Origin: a virus
Taxonomy: Duplodnaviria; Heunggongvirae; Uroviricota; Caudoviricetes
Length of the DNA stretch: 53,577 nucleotides
Virus record (IMG/VR): IMGVR_UViG_2541047877_000006
Strand: one strand, 5' to 3'
Under the pieces are notes generated by a model, which was not told the DNA's origin, ran no database searches, and saw only the letters and a program-made list of their open reading frames with translations. The position numbers and the translations under genes were made by a program. Shown in pieces: positions 1 through 38,011 of the stretch; the first letter of the stretch is position 1; the number at the start of each line of letters is the position of its first letter.

Positions 1-231
1 TTATGTGTTATCTTTGGCTGACGTTAAACCAATCCGATCAAAGAACTGCATTACGTCCTGATAGCGGTACATAACGCCACGCCCGGTCCCAAGTACGTCA
101 ACCGGGTCGGGGAACGGAGTTCCGTTCCGTTCCCATTTTTTACGCCATAAGTAAAACGTTCCCCTGCTAATTCCCCCAAGCATCCGGCAGATGGCAGGGC
201 GACTAAGAAGGATTGTCCCGGTTTTATCCAT
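1..231 (-). CDS. AlpA-family excisionase-like HTH regulator (76 aa)
   Basis: HTH_17-like pattern LSRPAICRMLGGISRGTFYLW...FPDPV; at left window edge, integrase expected just outside. Confidence 0.6.
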   Translation of the reverse strand: MDKTGTILLSRPAICRMLGGISRGTFYLWRKKWERNGTPFPDPVDVLGTGRGVMYRYQDVMQFFDRIGLTSAKDNT

Positions 232-893
232 TATTTATCCCCCGTGTATTCAACGTGTCCGATACATCCATCAATAATAGCTTGCGCCATATTGCGATAA
301 TCGCACGAAAAATCATTGTCGTGGTTAAAGTCAATCTCTTTTGCCGCGTCTTCACCCATAACATTGACAGCAAGTGCAAGCGCGATTTCAGCAAGTGCCT
401 TTTCTTTCGGATCTATATGCAGCTTGAAAGAGCATGTTGTCCATGATAGCGGCCTCTCGCCACAAAAATCTTCCTTGCTTTCACATATAGCCCATTTATC
501 ACCAACATATTTAAACCTGACGACATCAAGAATAGTTCCACTTGTCAAACCTACGCAATCAAGCCACACATTAACAGGAGGCTTATCACCTACGACCCAT
601 TCCGTTTTTTCTTGTTGTGTTTCGCAGTCACGGCGTTCATCTTCGATTAATCCATCAATAATTTCACTTTCTTTATTCATGCCGTCATCATCCTTGTTAG
701 ATAAATTAGCGTATTTATCAAATTTCCAGCTTGCCGCCATAACTGAATAAGTGCCGCGAGTATCAGCGCGGACGCCAACTAAATAGCATGATCCAAAATT
801 GTATTCCGTGCGGCATGTTGTTACCTCAAACGATGGGTAAACATCAGGGTTAGTGCGATGACGAATTATGCCAATTACTCTTGATTCACTCAT
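231..893 (-). CDS. hypothetical protein (220 aa)
   Basis: Long ORF; ATG at 893 preceded by GAGG; no domain recognised. Confidence 0.45.
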   Translation of the reverse strand: MSESRVIGIIRHRTNPDVYPSFEVTTCRTEYNFGSCYLVGVRADTRGTYSVMAASWKFDKYANLSNKDDDGMNKESEIIDGLIEDERRDCETQQEKTEWVVGDKPPVNVWLDCVGLTSGTILDVVRFKYVGDKWAICESKEDFCGERPLSWTTCSFKLHIDPKEKALAEIALALAVNVMGEDAAKEIDFNHDNDFSCDYRNMAQAIIDGCIGHVEYTGDK

Positions 894-908
894 TTTGTTT
901 ATCCTCAA

Positions 909-1085
909 TTACGCCACTGTTACATTGTCAACCTTAATAAAATATTCAGGATGATTTTCTATTTCGTGCTTAAAGTGCGCGTGACACAATCGCCACTCAC
1001 GCGCCTGGTTGTGAAAGTAATAAACGTATTCGCCATCAACCTTATACAAAATGCCTGTAGGTTTAGCCATGTAATAACTAGCCAT
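909..1085 (-). CDS. small hypothetical protein (58 aa)
   Basis: ORF below track cutoff; start overlaps ninB stop (TAATG coupling). Confidence 0.3.
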   Translation of the reverse strand: MASYYMAKPTGILYKVDGEYVYYFHNQAREWRLCHAHFKHEIENHPEYFIKVDNVTVA

Positions 1086-1516
1086 TATTGCCCCCAGCGT
1101 TTTATAAATTCCTCGTTTAATTTCGTATCACCTGACCATTGAACATTATGTTCAGCACCGAACGAGTAGATCAGTTCGATTAATTCGCTAAATTCCGCTT
1201 TACTCATCCGGCTGGTTGATGTTCCCAGCACAACAAAGCCTGATTTGTCCAGGTTAGGGACAACGCCATATTTCTTAAGCCCGGCAGTGAATACCGCCTT
1301 CCAGTCTTCAGGTGACAGCTTTCTGCCGTACCAGTTAACCTGATCGCTAACGTCTGTCAGCAACGCCCAAAGCAACGCGTTTTGACTCAGTGAGCGGGTT
1401 TTCTCCTGGATGGTGATTATCAGCGGGCTTTTGCTATCAGGCTGTATCTCCCTTATCTGCCTGATAGCGTTTTCTTTTACGGCGTCATTTACTATCTCAA
1501 ATCTTATTTGCCTCAT
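1085..1516 (-). CDS. ninB: recombination protein NinB (Orf family)
   Basis: 143 aa; close to lambda NinB over whole length (ITIQEKTRSLSQNALLWA, VVPNLDKSGFVVLGTSTSRMS). Confidence 0.8.
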   Translation of the reverse strand: MRQIRFEIVNDAVKENAIRQIREIQPDSKSPLIITIQEKTRSLSQNALLWALLTDVSDQVNWYGRKLSPEDWKAVFTAGLKKYGVVPNLDKSGFVVLGTSTSRMSKAEFSELIELIYSFGAEHNVQWSGDTKLNEEFIKRWGQ

Positions 1517-1710
1517 GATACATCGTTACTATTTTTCCACTGTGCCCGCGCATACATGATCGCCTGCAAAGAAATTAGGCGCGAGCTTGTCATAAAAGCG
1601 CCTTTTAAATGTTTCATATCAACCACAACAGGCTTATCAGGATCGTCGCAGCGCATGTATTCCGCAATTGTGCTTAAGTCTTCCACGGTCAAATCTAACT
1701 CCCTATTCAT
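1513..1710 (-). CDS. hypothetical protein (65 aa)
   Basis: ORF with AAGGGG SD; ATGA overlap with ninB start. Confidence 0.4.
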   Translation of the reverse strand: MNRELDLTVEDLSTIAEYMRCDDPDKPVVVDMKHLKGAFMTSSRLISLQAIMYARAQWKNSNDVS

Positions 1711-1719
1711 AATCGCCCC

Positions 1720-1926
1720 TTACACAATACGCATTGTGTTTCGTAATTCCCCGCGCAGCGCCCGCAGCGCGTCACGCATTGGTACAAAAAACCGGTTAAA
1801 TTTTACGTGTTTATATTTCCGCATTAGTGGCGGTGTATAAACCATCGCGCCGCAAGAATTGCATGGGAAACGGAAATGTGATTCATCAATGAATGTTTCA
1901 ACTGAATAAAAGATTACACGTCTCAT
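1720..1926 (-). CDS. hypothetical protein (68 aa)
   Basis: ORF; start overlaps upstream stop (ATGA coupling). Confidence 0.4.
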   Translation of the reverse strand: MRRVIFYSVETFIDESHFRFPCNSCGAMVYTPPLMRKYKHVKFNRFFVPMRDALRALRGELRNTMRIV

Positions 1927-2450
1927 AATTCCAACCCAGTTTCACCATTAAGTTTTTCGATCTCAAATACTGGTTTATCCGGCAGCAGGCCGTTATTTTT
2001 CCGGTATTCATTCAGGCGGTTGTTAAATTCAAATACGATAGGACTCGAACAACCATAGAAGCGAGCTGATCTAAAAAAGTATTTCCCATCAAATTTATTA
2101 ACTGTTAATAAATTTTCACTGCCTAACATCTTTAAAACCCGACAAATTTTCCTCTGTTTTATTTCGAGTTTTAATTCTTTTTTAACATCCTCAGCAGAAA
2201 AATAATCGCTACTATTCAGAAATAAAGGCATGATTTTTTTTATTGCCATTTCGCGCACTGACTTCAAGCAATATGATAATCGCGGCCCTCCCATTTCCAC
2301 AGGAATAATAGCGCCGTCAGAAACCATATCACGCAAACTATTAACGATCTCGATTTCAGGACCTGGAATAGATTTAATAATTGTTGCTTCACCAGCAACA
2401 GTGGCATCCTGTAAAAATTTCGCTATTTGTGTTTTATAAATGGTTTTCAT
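1923..2450 (-). CDS. hypothetical protein (175 aa)
   Basis: ORF; ATG at 2450 with GAGG SD; no domain recognised. Confidence 0.45.
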   Translation of the reverse strand: MKTIYKTQIAKFLQDATVAGEATIIKSIPGPEIEIVNSLRDMVSDGAIIPVEMGGPRLSYCLKSVREMAIKKIMPLFLNSSDYFSAEDVKKELKLEIKQRKICRVLKMLGSENLLTVNKFDGKYFFRSARFYGCSSPIVFEFNNRLNEYRKNNGLLPDKPVFEIEKLNGETGLEL

Positions 2451-2528
2451 TGTTTCTAGCCTCGATTTAAGCGCGAAAACAGCCACCAGAAAGCGGTAAA
2501 CTTTCCGGTAAGCCGTTTCTCAAGTTAA

Positions 2529-3950
2529 TTAAAAAGATGCGTTATTCTGGTTGTTTCGTGGTGAGAATCGGCTTGCAGACGGACGTTGTTGCATTGACTG
2601 GATGCAAGCTGACGCCGCGCGGGCCTGGTCGCATGGTAAGATGTTGCCGTTGTCGTCAAACCGCTGGTAAACAGTCCCCGTTTTCCCGTGACGGTTTTTT
2701 GAAACGATGATCTCCATGTATTCGCGGGCAACTGATTGTTCGTTGTAGTAGCCGTCGCGGTAGACCATGATGATCCGGTCTGCGTCTTGTTCAAGATTAC
2801 CGGAATCACGCAGATCAGAATTGTTCGGGCGCTTGTTCGGTCGTTCTTCAACGCGGCGGGATAATTGCGCCAGCGCCGCCACTGGCACGCGCAACTCTTT
2901 CGCCATCATTTTCAATGACCACGACAATTGCCCTACGGCGAGATCATGACGTTCGGCCTTAGCCAGTTTCATTAAACCGATGTAGTCAATCATCACCATT
3001 CCAAGATTAGGATGGTCCTGTTTCATCCGTTCGACGGTGGCGCGTATTTCCTCAACCGTTAACTGCGATGCGTCAACAATCCACACATCGAGATCGGCAA
3101 GGGCGCTCATCCCCTGGGTAACGTGCGCCCATCCTTCGTCATCCAGTTTTACCGGATTACGTAGGCAATCCGTTGATAAATTCCCAGCGCCAGCGATAGC
3201 TCGTTCAGTCATCTGATCGAGCGACATTTCAAGCGTGAACAGCAAAACGCCGACCCGCTGACCTTCTCCGCCAGGGTATTGGCGTTCAGCCGCCGCGCGG
3301 GCAATTGCCAACGCCAACGCCGATTTACCAGACCCTGGGCGTCCGGCGATAAGCACCAGATCAGTAGCGTTAATGCCGCCTAACATTTCGTCGAGTGGGT
3401 CAATCCCTGTTTTGATGTTGTCAGAGTTCACGCCACACTCCATGCGTTTACTTAGCACTTCCGTGTATTCCTGGACAGCATCGCGCAACAGCACCGGGAT
3501 AATCTGATCTTTTGTTACCTTTAATTTTGAATACCGGGAATCAAAATCTTTCATCGTCTCTTTGACGACCTCAAGAGTCCCCGTTTCCAGTTTGTAGCGC
3601 ATATCGTCGATGAGTTCCAACATCTGCCGACGCTGGTGCTCTTCACGTAGTAGCTGTGCGTATCCCTTCAGGTTGGCAGCAGAAGGGCACGATCGCGCCG
3701 TTTGCATTAGCGGCACAAAGTTTTCATTACCAATCTCATCACCAACCAGTAACGCGTCGATGAGATTTCTGTTTCTGGCTTGCGCACGGATAATTTCAAA
3801 AGCCCGCTTATATAGCGGAATAGTGAATACTTCAGGATCTAGAGTAGCGAGAACGTCTTGCGCGTTAGGAGTAAGCCCACCTAACAGCAGGCCACCGATA
3901 ACCGCAGATTCTCTTTCTTGCCGCAATGAGTTTACTTGTTCGGTTATCAT
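2529..3950 (-). CDS. DnaB-like replicative DNA helicase
   Basis: 473 aa; Walker A GRPGSGKS and DnaB-type RecA-like core; GGAGG SD. Confidence 0.85.
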   Translation of the reverse strand: MITEQVNSLRQERESAVIGGLLLGGLTPNAQDVLATLDPEVFTIPLYKRAFEIIRAQARNRNLIDALLVGDEIGNENFVPLMQTARSCPSAANLKGYAQLLREEHQRRQMLELIDDMRYKLETGTLEVVKETMKDFDSRYSKLKVTKDQIIPVLLRDAVQEYTEVLSKRMECGVNSDNIKTGIDPLDEMLGGINATDLVLIAGRPGSGKSALALAIARAAAERQYPGGEGQRVGVLLFTLEMSLDQMTERAIAGAGNLSTDCLRNPVKLDDEGWAHVTQGMSALADLDVWIVDASQLTVEEIRATVERMKQDHPNLGMVMIDYIGLMKLAKAERHDLAVGQLSWSLKMMAKELRVPVAALAQLSRRVEERPNKRPNNSDLRDSGNLEQDADRIIMVYRDGYYNEQSVAREYMEIIVSKNRHGKTGTVYQRFDDNGNILPCDQARAASACIQSMQQRPSASRFSPRNNQNNASF

Positions 3951-3968
3951 TATGGCATCGCCTCCGGT

Positions 3969-5087
3969 TTACAAAATGGAATATTCAGGGTAATAAACAA
4001 AGCGCCCGATTTCTCCATGATCCGGGCTGTAAATAATCACCGCTGCCAGCCGCCGCGACCGCCAACCACCATTCGTTGAATAAGCGTCTTTGCCAGCTAA
4101 CGTGCCGTGATACTCAACAACGCCTAACGATGACTCAATCAGCCGTTGATGATGCCAGTGCCCGCAATGAGCGTAAACAGCCGCAGATTTACCGAAATCT
4201 TCCCGCCAGTCAGATACGCAGGCCGCCAACAAGTTTTCCGGTTTTTTGATAGTATGACCGTGATGATATGCAAGGAATGTTTTGCCGTACTGTGTGTGGT
4301 GGACGATAGCAGGGGACACGTCAACCGTCACGCGCGGTTCATCTTCATAAAAAGCCGCCAGCGCCGCACGTAGCCAGATCATCCCTGATTGGTCGTGATT
4401 ACCGGATAATGTCTGGATCTCGACATCCTTATGATTTAGTAACATCTTCCCGACCGCACGCCGGACCGACCGGATCGCCACGTAAACCAGTTTTGCGTAG
4501 CGTGAATCGCAATCCAGGACGTGATTGCTTGATGGCGTCACTGGTAACAGGCCGTCAGTGTGAAGCACATCACCGCCGAGAAGTAAAACAGCCTTTTCAG
4601 ACATTGGCGCAGCGCCTACCGCGTAGTCGAAGAAATCATTTAGCACGCGTTCAGCGATCCCGGTGTCGTAGCTTTCGCCGCATTCAGCTTTATGAGCAAG
4701 CGCCCCGATATGTAGATCGAATACCGGATAAAGGGCCAGGCTTTTTTGGAAATCAATTTCCGGCACTGGCACGGCCTCCGCGCGTGGCATATCTTCCGTG
4801 AAAGCATCGCAAGCCGCTTGCATTAGCCTTTCCATTTCATCGCGATCACGGGCTGTTTTAATCCAGCGCATAATCACATTGCCATCCTTATCGACGAGCA
4901 AAGACTCACCATTGATGCCAAAACCAGGCGCGCGACGCGTGGATATTAAACCGCGCTTTGCCAATCGTGCGCCCAGGCGTTCGACGTTGCGTTTTGCCAT
5001 TCCATATTCTTCGGCTATTTGCTTGTAAGTTTTCCCATTGTTGTATTCAGCGATTAATTGCTCGTCGCTGATCTTTCTTTGCGACAT
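3969..5087 (-). CDS. HTH domain fused to calcineurin-like metallophosphoesterase
   Basis: N-terminal HTH (KTYKQIAEEYGMAKRNVERL); C-terminal motifs DLHIG, GGDVLH, GNHD, GHWHH (Mre11/SbcD-like set). Confidence 0.6.
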   Translation of the reverse strand: MSQRKISDEQLIAEYNNGKTYKQIAEEYGMAKRNVERLGARLAKRGLISTRRAPGFGINGESLLVDKDGNVIMRWIKTARDRDEMERLMQAACDAFTEDMPRAEAVPVPEIDFQKSLALYPVFDLHIGALAHKAECGESYDTGIAERVLNDFFDYAVGAAPMSEKAVLLLGGDVLHTDGLLPVTPSSNHVLDCDSRYAKLVYVAIRSVRRAVGKMLLNHKDVEIQTLSGNHDQSGMIWLRAALAAFYEDEPRVTVDVSPAIVHHTQYGKTFLAYHHGHTIKKPENLLAACVSDWREDFGKSAAVYAHCGHWHHQRLIESSLGVVEYHGTLAGKDAYSTNGGWRSRRLAAVIIYSPDHGEIGRFVYYPEYSIL

Positions 5088-5264
5088 AATGTTATTTCCT
5101 CCGGTTCACGGAATGAGTATTTATTCATAAAAAAACTAATTTTTATTAACATAGGTTTCACGGTGGCAAAAAATGCCAGTAGGGTTAATCAACAACTTAT
5201 GCAAATTGAAATAACTACTTAATGAATAACTAATCGTATACATTGTGGTTTACATTTTGTATAT

Positions 5265-6197
5265 TCATTGGCAGCAAACAATCTCTTTATATGCTTCTTC
5301 TACCATGTCGAATACTTCCGGCCTGTAATAAAAAAATTCATTGCTACCATCAAATTTTACAGTAAAGTTAATTTTATAATTGCTGAAATATTTATGCATC
5401 GTGCTTTCTAATTCTTGAACTTTTCCTGTTGGTCCTTCCCACGTCTTCACGATATGCAAATCATGGATTCTAACACCTGCTTTATGCGCGCTATTTAATA
5501 CCATATTTCTTCGCCTGTTCTCACTAACGCTCACGCCAATTTTCATCATCGTTGGCACTTCCAGATCATCAACCATGATGTAAATTTTTCCATACTCATG
5601 ACTAAGGAAACCGCTTTTCGCGCATTTCGGGCAGCCTTGCCCCTTTTTAAGGTTACTGGGTATAGCAGACCACTCATGACCGCAGACATTACAGCGGCAT
5701 AATACTTTTGTTGCGTTATTAACAATTTCGCCTATAACTTCAACATCAGGATTAACCTTCGCAATAGTCGCGATCTGTTCTTCGTGTGTTAAGGTTCTGA
5801 TTTGTGCTAGTTTTAAAGATTTACACTTCGGGCAGCCGTACCCACTTTTAAGGTTGTAAGGACTAACAGACCACTCATGATCACAAACTTTGCAGCGGCA
5901 CGGGACTTTATCCCTGGCGTTATTAACTTCCCCCAATACTTCAATATTTGGGTTAACTTTGGCTATATCTGCAATATGTTCTTCGTGTGTTAATGTTTTT
6001 TTTAACCTTGCGCATTTAGGGCAACCGTTCCCGTGTTTAAGGTTGTTAGGAGTAGCAGACCACTCATGATCACAAACTTTGCAGCGGCATGATACTTTTG
6101 TTGTGCTGCAGGTTACTTCCTCCAACACTTCAATATTTGGGTTAACTTTCTCAATAGCTGCAATTTGCTCTTCATGCGTTAACTTGCGTCTACCCAT
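5265..6197 (-). CDS. triple zinc-ribbon repeat protein with C-terminal T5orf172 (GIY-YIG-like) domain
   Basis: Three ~45-aa repeats LTHEE.IA.I.KVNP.IEV...CRCKVC.HEWS...GCPKC; C-terminal KIYIMV...KIGVS...ENRRR. Confidence 0.6.
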   Translation of the reverse strand: MGRRKLTHEEQIAAIEKVNPNIEVLEEVTCSTTKVSCRCKVCDHEWSATPNNLKHGNGCPKCARLKKTLTHEEHIADIAKVNPNIEVLGEVNNARDKVPCRCKVCDHEWSVSPYNLKSGYGCPKCKSLKLAQIRTLTHEEQIATIAKVNPDVEVIGEIVNNATKVLCRCNVCGHEWSAIPSNLKKGQGCPKCAKSGFLSHEYGKIYIMVDDLEVPTMMKIGVSVSENRRRNMVLNSAHKAGVRIHDLHIVKTWEGPTGKVQELESTMHKYFSNYKINFTVKFDGSNEFFYYRPEVFDMVEEAYKEIVCCQ

Positions 6198-6349
6198 AAT
6201 TCAACACCTCACAAATTACACAAAAACACTTCATACGCGCTACAACGCAAAAATTCCACCGCGACACCCGTTTGCACAGGTTGCAGTGTCTTATTGCGTC
6301 AGAGGCGCTATCAGGTGGCTAATTTTTGATTTACAGAATGGTAGGTGGG

Positions 6350-6451
6350 TTATGGATTGACTAGAAGGAACAAACCGCCGAACAAGGCGACGTTAACAGC
6401 GATTGCCGCAGCGATGGCAAAGGCCAGGGCGAAAACGTGTTTACCGTCCAT
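6350..6451 (-). CDS. small hydrophobic peptide (33 aa)
   Basis: MDGKHVFALAFAIAAAIAVNVALFGGLFLLVNP; GAGAGG SD 8 nt upstream. Confidence 0.3.
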   Translation of the reverse strand: MDGKHVFALAFAIAAAIAVNVALFGGLFLLVNP

Positions 6452-6583
6452 TTTAAAATCCTCTCTAAAACGCTCTATAACGAGCTAAACCGCTAAAGAT
6501 ATGAATCGTAGCACCATGCGTGTTTTAGCTCGCTGGTGAGGTTGTTTTGTGGGTAATTTTGGATTTTTGCGGATCGTGGTTGG

Positions 6584-7630
6584 TCAAAGAGCGCCTGCGC
6601 GTGTGTCGCGTAGCGTTTTTGGTTTAAGCAGGAAATCAAGTGTCGCTGTGAAGCCATTGCCGAAGTAAAAATCTGAAGCCGTGTTTTTGAATGTTTCGAA
6701 GTAGGCGACAAAGCCGTTAATGCTTTTGTCTTTCAGGTAGTCAGTGAACGCATAGATCTTGCGTTCAAGATCCCGATCCAGTTCGGCAGGTGGTAACAGG
6801 CCGTCAAACGTGCTGTTAAATGCTTCCACCACGTCGGCAGCGTTTACAGTAGCTGATAGCTTGCGCCATTGCTCAGCGTCAGCCAGATACCCATCGAATT
6901 TAGTTACCCGGCAAATGTTGATAGGCTTAGGTGTTCCACCACGGCTGCGCCATTGCGTCAAAGCCCATTCGATTACTAATGTGATCTCATCCTCCGTGTA
7001 TGCCTTACGTGTTTTTGTTTCTGTCAGTAGTTCGATAAATGGCTTAGCATCACGACTCTTGCATCCAGCTTTGTCGTTGTAGAAGGCCAAGCAACGCAAT
7101 GCCGCTTCGTTTACGCCATCCTGATTGACCGTTTTTTGTCCATTTTCGCTAATACACGAAGTGTATATATCTTTTTCTCTTTCTTCTTCTACTTCTAATT
7201 CATGACCCTTTCCTGACCCGGTCATGACCCTATCATGACCTTTTGGTGTTGGATTGATTAACTTCTCTAATTTTAATTGCTCCTTCGCTGTGTTTATAGC
7301 AGCCCTATAAGCGCTCTTAGAAGTCATTGATTGGTCCAGCCTTTTTAATAACTTTAGGCAAGTTATGTGGCCTTGAGAACATTCGAACAAACCAATTTCG
7401 ATGAAGTATTTCATCATTTCTTCTATACGTTTTTCAGTAGATCCGACGTTTCGCGCAATGATTCTCGCGTCATGTCGTAGGTCAAAATTCAGATTGTGCT
7501 GATCTACGTCATAAGTTATTAGTTCGAGGCAATACCAATAAAGCCCGTACCCTTCCAGGCCATAATCTAACAAAACGTTTTGAAGTTTTTCATCGCGGTT
7601 CGCATCGCTGTCATGCTTAAACCACTTCAT
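6584..7630 (-). CDS. phage replisome organizer / replication initiation protein
   Basis: 348 aa; N-terminal MKWFKHDSDANRDEKL...GLEGYGLYWYCLE motif; same operon as helicase. Confidence 0.7.
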   Translation of the reverse strand: MKWFKHDSDANRDEKLQNVLLDYGLEGYGLYWYCLELITYDVDQHNLNFDLRHDARIIARNVGSTEKRIEEMMKYFIEIGLFECSQGHITCLKLLKRLDQSMTSKSAYRAAINTAKEQLKLEKLINPTPKGHDRVMTGSGKGHELEVEEEREKDIYTSCISENGQKTVNQDGVNEAALRCLAFYNDKAGCKSRDAKPFIELLTETKTRKAYTEDEITLVIEWALTQWRSRGGTPKPINICRVTKFDGYLADAEQWRKLSATVNAADVVEAFNSTFDGLLPPAELDRDLERKIYAFTDYLKDKSINGFVAYFETFKNTASDFYFGNGFTATLDFLLKPKTLRDTRAGAL

Positions 7631-7633
7631 AGA

Positions 7634-7891
7634 TCATCCCTCCGGCAACATCACTACATAGACATCACTGAATGCATCAAGACGACAAACAAATCCTTTA
7701 TCCATTAACGCGGCGAAGGCATCATGTACCGTATGAACAGGAAGTTCACACATTGCGGCTACTTCTTTGCGTGATGCATCATGTACCCGTCCTTTGTTAT
7801 CTGCCTTTTCAGCCAGAGCCATTAAGACAAGTTTTTGAATCGGGCTATTAAGTTTTACGTTCCATGCTTTACTAATCATGTTCATACTCAT
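7634..7891 (-). CDS. winged-helix/HTH DNA-binding protein in Cro position
   Basis: 85 aa from ATG 7891 (AGGAG SD); first gene of leftward operon, divergent from cI. Confidence 0.4.
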   Translation of the reverse strand: MSMNMISKAWNVKLNSPIQKLVLMALAEKADNKGRVHDASRKEVAAMCELPVHTVHDAFAALMDKGFVCRLDAFSDVYVVMLPEG

Positions 7892-8105
7892 CGCATTTTC
7901 TCCTATGGTTAGAGTGAACGCGCGGGCGGGCATCCCATTAGCATTAGATAGCAGTGACTGACCGCTCAACAGATCCCGCCGTTGCGTGATATTTGTTTTT
8001 CGCTTCGCAGCGACACCGGATTTTTAAAGAGCATAAGGTAAGTGCCTTTTTGTGCCTTCAGTTATCTTTTTCCTTGCGTCTTTGCAAGTATGGCCTTACC
8101 TTGTC

Positions 8106-8163
8106 TGCAAGTTTACAAAATGGAATTTTAAGATCAAGGCTTAAAATACACGTTTTGTGACTT
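8106..8163. promoter_or_regulatory. nested imperfect palindrome in cI upstream region (operator-like)
   Basis: TGCAAGTTTACAAAA...TTTTAAG atcaagg CTTAAAA...TTTTGTGACTTGCA; arms match 14/15. Confidence 0.4.
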
Positions 8164-8196
8164 GCATCAAACTTTTTGAGGTTATAGGGTAGCGAC

Positions 8197-8844
8197 ATGA
8201 AAACAAAATGGTATGACTTAGCAAAGCAGCTCATGCGGGCGCAGGGCATGAGCCAGGATTCACTCGCGGATCGTATGGGGATAACTAAAGGCGGCCTGTC
8301 ACACTGGCTGAACGGTCGCCGAGAGCCAAATCTTGAAGATATTGCGCGGATTATGCGCGAGCTTGGTCGTCGGCAGTTTACTGTTACACATGATGGCATG
8401 GTCATTGATGATTCTGTTTCTAATACACTTCAGGCCGTGCCGCCGCGTGATTTAGGTAGTTACCCGGTTATTGACTGGAAGGACACAGTAAACAATATGG
8501 ATGACGCAAGGCGTTCAGCATTACGACACGTTACGACTAGCGTTATTTGTTCAGATGACAGTTACTGGCTGGTTGCCAAAGGTGAATCAATGAACGCGCC
8601 GCAGGGGTTGAGCATCCCGGCGGGGACGATGATACTTGTGGACCCGCACGCGCCAGCTATTGACGGCAAACTGGTTATAGCCCAGCTTGAGGAAGGGCAG
8701 ATACCGACGTTTAAACAGTTGATTATTGATGGAGGTCAAAGGCTTTTACGTTCGCTCAATCCGCTGTATCCGCCAATCCCTATGAATCCAGAATCAAAAA
8801 TTATAGGCGTGGTGGTTGATGCGAAGATCGTAAACCTGCCATAA
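8197..8844 (+). CDS. cI: CI-like repressor (HTH-XRE plus S24 LexA-like peptidase)
   Basis: 215 aa; N-terminal HTH (MSQDSLADRMGITKGGLSHWLNGRREP); C-terminal GESM serine and lysine of S24 autopeptidases. Confidence 0.8.
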   Translation: MKTKWYDLAKQLMRAQGMSQDSLADRMGITKGGLSHWLNGRREPNLEDIARIMRELGRRQFTVTHDGMVIDDSVSNTLQAVPPRDLGSYPVIDWKDTVNNMDDARRSALRHVTTSVICSDDSYWLVAKGESMNAPQGLSIPAGTMILVDPHAPAIDGKLVIAQLEEGQIPTFKQLIIDGGQRLLRSLNPLYPPIPMNPESKIIGVVVDAKIVNLP

Positions 8845-16382: not shown

Positions 16383-16404
16383 AGTTTACAAAATGGCATC
16401 ATTG

Positions 16405-16420
16405 TGTGATGCGGATCACA
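16405..16420. promoter_or_regulatory. CRP-box-like palindrome
   Basis: TGTGATGCGGATCACA matches TGTGA-N6-TCACA; flanked by inverted TACAAAATGG copies. Confidence 0.4.
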
Positions 16421-16541
16421 TAATGGCGCTTTTTGTCTTGTTTGGGGGTATCCATTTTGTATACTTCAAGCAAACAAAATGCTCTTTAAAAATCCGGCAG
16501 CGCTGAAATGCGTAGAAATCACCTGAAAAGGAGAGAGCATT

Positions 16542-21660: not shown

Positions 21661-21774
21661 GGCGTTGGACAACCATAAATGTGATCTGTATCACAATGTA
21701 TACGAAATGGCATTGTTTCGACAGTGCCATTTTGTTATATATAAGCCACGGAAAGACGGAGGGGAGGCAAGAAG

Positions 21775-37969: not shown

Positions 37970-38011
37970 TTATACAAAATGGAGTCGTTGAAGTAAAGCC
38001 ATTTTGTATAA
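37970..38011. promoter_or_regulatory. 42-bp palindrome with back-to-back divergent promoters
   Basis: TTATACAAAATGG-16 nt-CCATTTTGTATAA; minus strand -35 TTTACT and -10 TATAAG, plus strand -10 TATAAA. Confidence 0.5.

Follow-up and report, generated by a model that had tools for sequence, protein, structure and literature searches.

Homing endonuclease genes (HEGs) of the T5orf172 type have been defined as a class in which 87% of the members carry at least one zinc finger of the CapR/DUF723/DUF4379 type, often repeated and with repeats that recombine (Barth 2023, PMC10448857). The CapR finger module binds DNA in a cysteine-dependent manner, and has been traced to ICP1 proteins in which it is N-terminal and a T5orf172 domain is C-terminal (Netter 2021, PMC8096241). 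Related proteins are the CapR of PLE, a transcriptional repressor without a nuclease domain (PMC8096241), and ICP1 Odn (gp88), an anti-satellite weapon in which a C-terminal T5orf172 domain is combined with a RepA_N DNA-binding domain coming from its satellite target (PMC8263062). Here, a gene at 5265..6197 on the minus strand of a 53,577-nt Caudoviricetes sequence (IMG/VR record IMGVR_UViG_2541047877_000006, the whole stretch being called the window) was analysed, which is probably a free-standing HEG of the T5orf172 branch of the GIY-YIG superfamily, lodged in a hypervariable intergenic slot within the early replication operon of an mEp021-group coliphage; it is called the HEG below.

The window HEG resembles the T5orf172 HEGs of ICP1 (gp174, gp165, gp121, gp53 and gp130), which likewise carry N-terminal repeated CapR/DUF723/DUF4379 fingers and a C-terminal T5orf172 domain, are built as 'beads on a string' with repeat numbers changing via intragenic recombination, vary in presence among close relatives and adjoin essential genes. 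It differs from them in residing in a temperate coliphage or prophage instead of a lytic vibriophage, in its sequence, which is only weakly similar to gp121 (hhalign E 0.059), in having five invariant cysteines per finger (CxCxxC...CxxC) versus the CxxC...CxC of the CapR papers, and in its 1-to-6-finger allelic series at a single site. The original prediction had taken the N-terminal position of the DNA-binding repeats as unusual, but this architecture is already published and is the norm for T5orf172 HEGs (PMC8096241, PMC10448857). What is new here is limited to the host, a temperate gut coliphage or prophage, and to the series of one-, three- and six-finger alleles at one site; PMC10448857 makes no mention of temperate phages, and the mEpimmI genome paper does not treat these genes as HEGs, with 'homing', 'HNH' and 'zinc' all unmentioned. 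Compared with I-TevI and the T4 Seg enzymes, the domain order is reversed, with the nuclease placed C-terminally, and a zinc-finger array with a short linker is found rather than an HTH/NUMOD domain. Enzymes of the I-TevI type possess an N-terminal GIY-YIG domain, a long linker and a C-terminal helix-turn-helix (HTH)/NUMOD DNA-binding domain, and T4 Seg proteins are free-standing GIY-YIG endonucleases.

Finger array and nuclease domain

The 933-nt open reading frame (ORF) encodes a complete 310-aa product plus stop codon, and the public databases already contain the identical product (P0002), which E. coli prophages carry in this position. The cassette further includes a 37-nt leader (6198..6234, minus strand), which holds the ribosome-binding site (RBS) GAGGTG 7 nt 5′ of the ATG, and homology to the empty-site phage restarts at 6235. 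Three tandem CRC(K/N)VC...GCPKC repeats, as originally predicted, were confirmed in the ORF list and the sequence, each following the pattern C-x-C-x2-C, 16 residues, C-x2-C. Based on Pfam and the secondary structure of the model, finger unit 1 spans aa 6-62 (6012..6182), unit 2, also marked by the DNA repeats, aa 69-125 (5823..5993), and unit 3 aa 136-192 (5622..5792), all on the minus strand. The units start at aa 6, 69 and 136, so that successive ones are 63 and 67 aa apart rather than the ~45 aa first estimated, and each comprises a 57-aa core and a 6-10-aa linker. Pairs of units are 62-66% identical when compared in full and 68-74% identical in the core, and the repeats are visible in the DNA as well, at spacings of 201 and 189 nt (families D1 and D2). 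Pfam assigned to them DUF4379 ('probable treble-clef zinc finger') three times (4e-21) and the CapR homology domain three times (1e-15); the finger module is thus homologous to that of the PLE CapR repressor, whose cysteines are needed for DNA binding (PMC8096241).

A short conserved linker, AKxGFLSH, connects finger unit 3 with the T5orf172/MUG113 nuclease domain (aa 200-310; 5268..5600, minus strand). Residues 204-298 scored 23.3 bits against MUG113, above the Pfam gathering cut-off of 22.3, and 19.3 bits against T5orf172, slightly below the cut-off of 20, which is passed by the alleles of phages mEp013 and mEp021 (25.3 and 22.3 bits). PF10544 is precomputed for many homologs of the protein, and PHROG 681 'endonuclease' (phrog_681) matches it at 1.5e-57. 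The C-terminal GIY-YIG-like T5orf172 domain that had been proposed from the letters alone was therefore recovered by profile searches, and the modelled fold agrees with it. No paralog of the HEG was found within the window.

Structure models were built from homolog alignments. The C-terminal 115 residues yielded a confident fold, with a predicted local distance difference test score (pLDDT) of 91 and a predicted template modelling score (pTM) of 0.82, and the model shows a GIY-YIG fold, which has in common with the I-TevI catalytic domain (1ln0) the fold but not the sequence. In the modelled finger unit, a helix is followed by three short strands and two cysteine knuckles. Because the full-length model reached a pLDDT of 90 but a pTM of only 0.49, the protein is modelled as well-defined domains whose mutual orientation is undefined, i.e. 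as 'beads on a string'. A sequence search of the PDB with the family profile retrieved no nuclease, its only hits being trypanosome mitoribosome proteins with DUF4379, Foldseek with the full-length model again returned only DUF4379 modules in trypanosome mitoribosome factors, and the PDB held no solved structure for a CapR-type phage finger.

Among 42 three-finger homologs, all 15 cysteines (five per unit) are invariant, and so are Y206, K219, G221, R229, E264, H268 and E287; the codons of R229 and E264 lie at 5511-5513 and 5406-5408 on the minus strand. Mapping the domain onto I-TevI by sequence was tried and rejected, since neither hhalign nor hmmsearch produced a significant alignment between the C-terminal family profile and the I-TevI catalytic domain (probability 0.1%); the I-TevI sequence used was checked (100% versus T-even records), and Odn was taken instead as the closer comparator. 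The K-x-G, Arg and Glu-x3-His motifs of the HEG family profile align with Odn (hmmsearch 17 bits; hhalign E 3e-4), and in this comparison the first-helix His/Tyr typical of other GIY-YIG enzymes is absent. E264 falls opposite Odn E180, to which E75 is the equivalent glutamate in I-TevI. Odn with the E180A substitution no longer cleaved, either in vitro or in vivo (PMC8263062). The three mEp-phage alleles (mEp013, window and mEp021) are ~80-85% identical in the nuclease domain, and between them a dN/dS of 0.22-0.25 was determined for this domain, indicative of purifying selection. Given the invariant catalytic residues, the alignment with the Odn motifs and the low dN/dS, the protein looks like an intact enzyme under selection.

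Empty sites and a variable slot

The window belongs to the mEp021/mEpimmI group of temperate, non-lambdoid coliphages or prophages, and its nearest record is MagusPhagus, with about 91-93% identity on both flanks of the HEG. The P0002 protein is found unchanged at the corresponding position in several E. coli chromosomes, which makes it most likely that the window is itself such a prophage. A five-way alignment revealed a clean empty site in MagusPhagus, where homology ends at the HEG stop codon and 37 nt 5′ of the ATG, and no HEG homolog was found in the 50 kb examined of its 54.4-kb genome. On the exonuclease side, the junction motif GTTTACATTTTGTATATTCATT (5248..5269) overlaps the stop codon, and its empty-site counterpart reads GTTTACAGAATGTATATTTATT. 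Three HEG-less E. coli prophages closely resemble MagusPhagus at this place (GTTTACAGAA(T/C)GTATATTTATTTTCCGTAAAACGCGCTACAACGC), so that four independent empty sites are nearly identical. At identical junctions reside the orthologous alleles mEp013_12 with one finger (178 aa) and mEp021_12 with six (495 aa; AXN54131.1, 'putative zinc-ribbon domain-containing protein'), versus three in the window (310 aa), while in mEp515 the HEG is absent and an unrelated Bro-N/ANT gene sits in the slot.

By surveying 5426 complete E. coli genomes, 35 were found to carry an mEp021-type backbone. The slot was occupied by the HEG in 12 of these, by Bro/Ant/KilAC genes in 8, by Rha-family genes in 4 and by a DUF559 (Vsr-like endonuclease domain) protein in 1, the last confirmed separately; it was empty in about 7, and other or partial in 3. 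The presence of the gene in related phages is hence variable rather than universal, which bears on one alternative, namely that the gene encodes a core accessory factor of replication, for example a zinc-finger primase or a loader-like protein. Its position in the replication module, between the initiator and the exonuclease-helicase genes, would suit such a role; nevertheless, the gene is absent from MagusPhagus, mEp515 and 23 of the 35 related prophages, unrelated genes substitute for it at the same spot, and domain searches found no primase or loader domain in the protein. This presence/absence pattern refutes a core role, which we regard as scarcely credible.

The single DUF559 occupant is found in E. 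coli M15 (2166-3221 of the extracted locus), where an unrelated 351-aa protein with a C-terminal DUF559/PvuRts1I-like (Vsr-type endonuclease) domain fills the slot, and may represent another kind of mobile nuclease competing for it. This locus also bears on the AT-rich 145-bp segment that lies between the HEG and the exonuclease gene in the window (5103..5247), given here as context only. The segment is absent from mEp013, mEp021, mEp515 and MagusPhagus, had no match in phage records, and was detected in 4 complete E. coli genomes, M15 among them. As it occurs there beside the unrelated DUF559 gene, the segment was rejected as part of the mobile unit, and it belongs to the slot or the backbone, not to the HEG. 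The original prediction had also assigned the gene its own flanking intergenic DNA; this did not hold on either side, the DNA beyond ~6235 being backbone common to the window and the gene-less MagusPhagus. At its exonuclease-proximal end, the 145-bp segment carries a sequence (GGTTCACGGAATGAGTATTTATTCAT) that looks like the junction motif repeated in diverged form, and imperfect 17-nt inverted ends are located at 5115-5131 and 5219-5235; the segment may have been left behind by a previous occupant of the slot.

A second slot was observed at the helicase/exonuclease junction, where mEp515 and mEp021 carry an HNH_3+AP2 HEG (2981-3535 and 4481-4984 of the respective loci) and where the window is empty, its two genes lying 18 nt apart (3951-3968). 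Because the slot occupants vary and an HNH_3+AP2 HEG is present at this neighbouring junction, the replication module is a small 'HEG island'.

Family distribution, array evolution and a homing scenario

Homologs of the HEG product numbered 1550 at E<=1e-5, and the best 120 of them carry 2-7 fingers, most often 3. In NCBI, such homologs are listed under 'GIY-YIG nuclease family protein' or 'zinc-ribbon domain-containing protein', and tblastn found relatives in 931 phage records. Apart from the replication module, the family occupies the tail-gene region of mEp013, which holds a second, five-finger member, and the surroundings of nrdD and phoH in the lytic Vequintavirus navn (rV5-like), where one member lies among nrdD fragments beside an HNH HEG and another between two phoH-like ORFs. 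In the navn locus, the nrdD annotation consists of four pieces, between which lie an HNH/I-HmuI-like gene and the T5orf172 member (231-4599), and the member flanked by the two phoH-like ORFs is at 5633-7765. Thus a profile match, a GIY-YIG fold, the catalytic Arg and Glu, CapR-type fingers, variable presence and multiple insertion sites, by which T5orf172 HEGs are recognised, are all found here. The original view of a free-standing, homing-endonuclease-like gene rather than a core replication protein stands, on the profiles, the fold, the catalytic residues, the empty site and the presence in 12 of 35 backbones.

Over 360 finger units, the scaffold is strongly conserved, and variability concentrates in the loop preceding the second strand and at positions 38-52 between the zinc knuckles, a pattern that would be expected for specificity-determining residues. 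Since units show no positional orthology between alleles, except for a recent duplication in mEp021 (R5/R6, 89% identical), the arrays evolve by duplication, deletion and shuffling. A bolder and rather doubtful extension is that the array acts as a modular, rapidly re-programmable DNA reader, in which units would read sub-sites via positions 38-52, and cleavage would be redirected or widened as units (1 to 7 have been seen) are gained or lost.

From these comparisons we infer homing, DNA binding, cleavage, a target site and a time of expression, which may be connected as follows. The HEG would be co-transcribed with the replication genes at lytic growth or induction, its three independently folded CapR/DUF4379-type finger units would read DNA as 'beads on a string', and the C-terminal T5orf172 domain, with R229 and E264 as catalytic residues, would cut nearby. 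Cleavage would probably be directed at the conserved empty site GTTTACAGAATGTATATTTATTTTCCGTAAAACGCGCTACAACGC, or close to it, in a related phage or prophage that shares the cell and has the gene-less allele. When the break is repaired by recombination with the genome that carries the HEG, the gene, probably together with flanking replication-module DNA, would be copied into the cut genome, and recombination between repeats could add or remove finger units and so retune target recognition.

Several points weigh against a homing role. Even in the ICP1 genes on which the class was founded, homing 'has not been experimentally verified' (PMC10448857), and endonuclease activity within the T5orf172 family has been demonstrated only for Odn (PMC8263062). 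Flanking identity shows no sharp co-conversion tract at the HEG: a recombination breakpoint or co-conversion exactly at the gene was rejected from blastn block identities, which do not change sharply there, and the nearest breakpoint so determined is inside the rep gene, ~660 bp from the HEG. In addition, the nuclease-proximal finger is no better conserved than the others, and alleles with 1, 3 and 6 fingers at one insertion site are awkward for a model in which the array reads one fixed site.

The gene could instead be a domesticated, HEG-derived weapon that no longer homes and, to the benefit of its own phage, cuts a competitor, which might be a satellite, a plasmid or a related phage that superinfects or is co-induced, much as the PLE origin is cut by Odn. 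Such a change of use is possible for T5orf172 nucleases (PMC8263062), the slot adjoins a replication initiator with iteron-like repeats (7200-7240), the nuclease domain is under apparent purifying selection, and other slot occupants (Bro/Ant and Rha) are conflict or regulatory genes. However, the fingers are unlike the replication-initiator DNA-binding domain that Odn carries, and presence/absence with precise junctions, plus insertion in or between essential genes elsewhere, is the classic HEG pattern. Cutting gene-less relatives would amount to homing anyway, so the two readings overlap; a purely non-homing weapon is considered unlikely.

Operon context, the recurrent 10-mer and significance

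On the minus strand, the gene order is a MarR-like HTH gene, the replication initiator (Lin1244_N/O-like; 6584..7630), a conserved 33-aa hydrophobic ORF (6350..6451), the HEG, an HTH-metallophosphoesterase gene (phrog_704 'DNA repair exonuclease'; 3969..5087) and the DnaB helicase (2529..3950). The HEG had been placed between a replisome organizer and the helicase; the replication module is right, while the 33-aa ORF and the 'DNA repair exonuclease' gene intervene. The 33-aa ORF (MDGKHVFALAFAIAAAIAVNVALFGGLFLLVNP) is strongly hydrophobic, has its own RBS between the rep gene and the variable slot, was kept in all relatives examined and is an annotated gene in prophage loci. The 372-aa product of 3969-5087 combines an N-terminal HTH with a metallophosphoesterase-like body; it matched phrog_704 at 1e-137 and nothing above threshold in Pfam, and its gene adjoins DnaB in all relatives. 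Inside the replication-initiator gene, at 7200-7240, there are three partly palindromic 19-nt direct repeats spaced at 11 bp (TCATGACCCTTTCCTGACC and variants), which resemble origin iterons such as those of lambda O.

Rfam gave no match to an intron or structured RNA at E<=1 across 3500..8500, and the HEG is therefore free-standing. A promoter or terminator of its own was likewise looked for and rejected: the RNA fold of the downstream spacer is unexceptional (z = -1.8), and promoter-like sites were found at chance level (5 versus 4.4 expected) and on the wrong strand, with none on the HEG strand. Owing to this lack of a minus-strand promoter-like site, the HEG appears to be part of the lytic early operon, and is presumably co-transcribed with the replication genes. 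The same evidence bears on the defence-type nuclease that had been offered as an alternative, i.e. a prophage-encoded anti-phage enzyme protecting the lysogen. The combination of a nuclease with a DNA-recognition module, carried by a prophage in a variable slot, would fit such a system, but in PADLOC-DB the best hits were two candidate models, PDC-S57 (E 0.007, 14 bits) and PDC-S54 (E 0.024, 12 bits), neither significant. Furthermore, the gene shares its strand with rep, exo and dnaB inside the lytic early operon; as no promoter-like site was found on that strand, the lysogen would not be expected to express the gene, and relatives in strictly lytic phages sit among housekeeping-gene fragments. 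A defence function is accordingly judged improbable.

The 10-mer TACAAAATGG, loose variants of which had been noted in the HEG flanks, occurs in the window 26 times with <=1 mismatch (11 exact) versus 5.7 ± 2.3 expected, an ~4.5-fold enrichment. Two copies with one mismatch each do lie near the HEG, at 5252-5261 and 6332-6341, but these are in backbone DNA, and the motif is genome-wide and equally enriched in the HEG-less MagusPhagus (22 versus 5.3 expected). It belongs to the phage backbone, probably as an operator or promoter element. Examples lie at 37973-38008, 21701-21736, 16387-16461 and 8106-8166, and copies often follow tt or ta; two palindromic pairs share the same N16 spacing (TACAAAATGG-N16-CCATTTTGTA), one copy falls within a 27-nt inverted repeat just 5′ of the cI-like repressor gene (8197..8844), and some are merely start-codon contexts. 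Because the motif is equally enriched in a phage without the HEG, the suggested binding of the fingers to TACAAAATGG is unsupported and was dropped.

These observations also concern the possibility that the protein is a sequence-specific regulator, similar to CapR or to I-TevI autorepression, which tunes a phage promoter, possibly via TACAAAATGG, and whose nuclease is vestigial. In its favour, CapR-type fingers bind promoter DNA and repress transcription (PMC8096241), and TACAAAATGG is strongly over-represented, with some N16-spaced palindromes. Against it, a domesticated repressor of the CapR type consists of a finger without a nuclease, whereas the T5orf172 domain of the window protein is intact, with R229, E264 and the whole GIY-YIG core invariant and evidently held by purifying selection; moreover, the enrichment of TACAAAATGG does not depend on the HEG, which is dispensable in most relatives. 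We give this regulatory reading little credence, and a homing endonuclease gene remains the preferred explanation.

With this finding, the T5orf172 HEG class, recently described in lytic vibriophages, also covers temperate gut coliphages of a prevalent group, and misleading annotations such as 'HypA/HybF zinc finger protein' or 'hypothetical protein' are corrected. The locus offers a natural experiment, in which one and the same site is empty, holds one-, three- or six-finger alleles, or is taken by unrelated genes, and as gene-plus and gene-minus phages have already been isolated, it provides a tractable E. coli system for studying homing and the dependence of specificity on finger number. 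If the array is indeed a modular reader, these genes would constitute a natural gene drive on the replication modules of temperate gut coliphages and prophages, and possibly a new scaffold for programmable nucleases.

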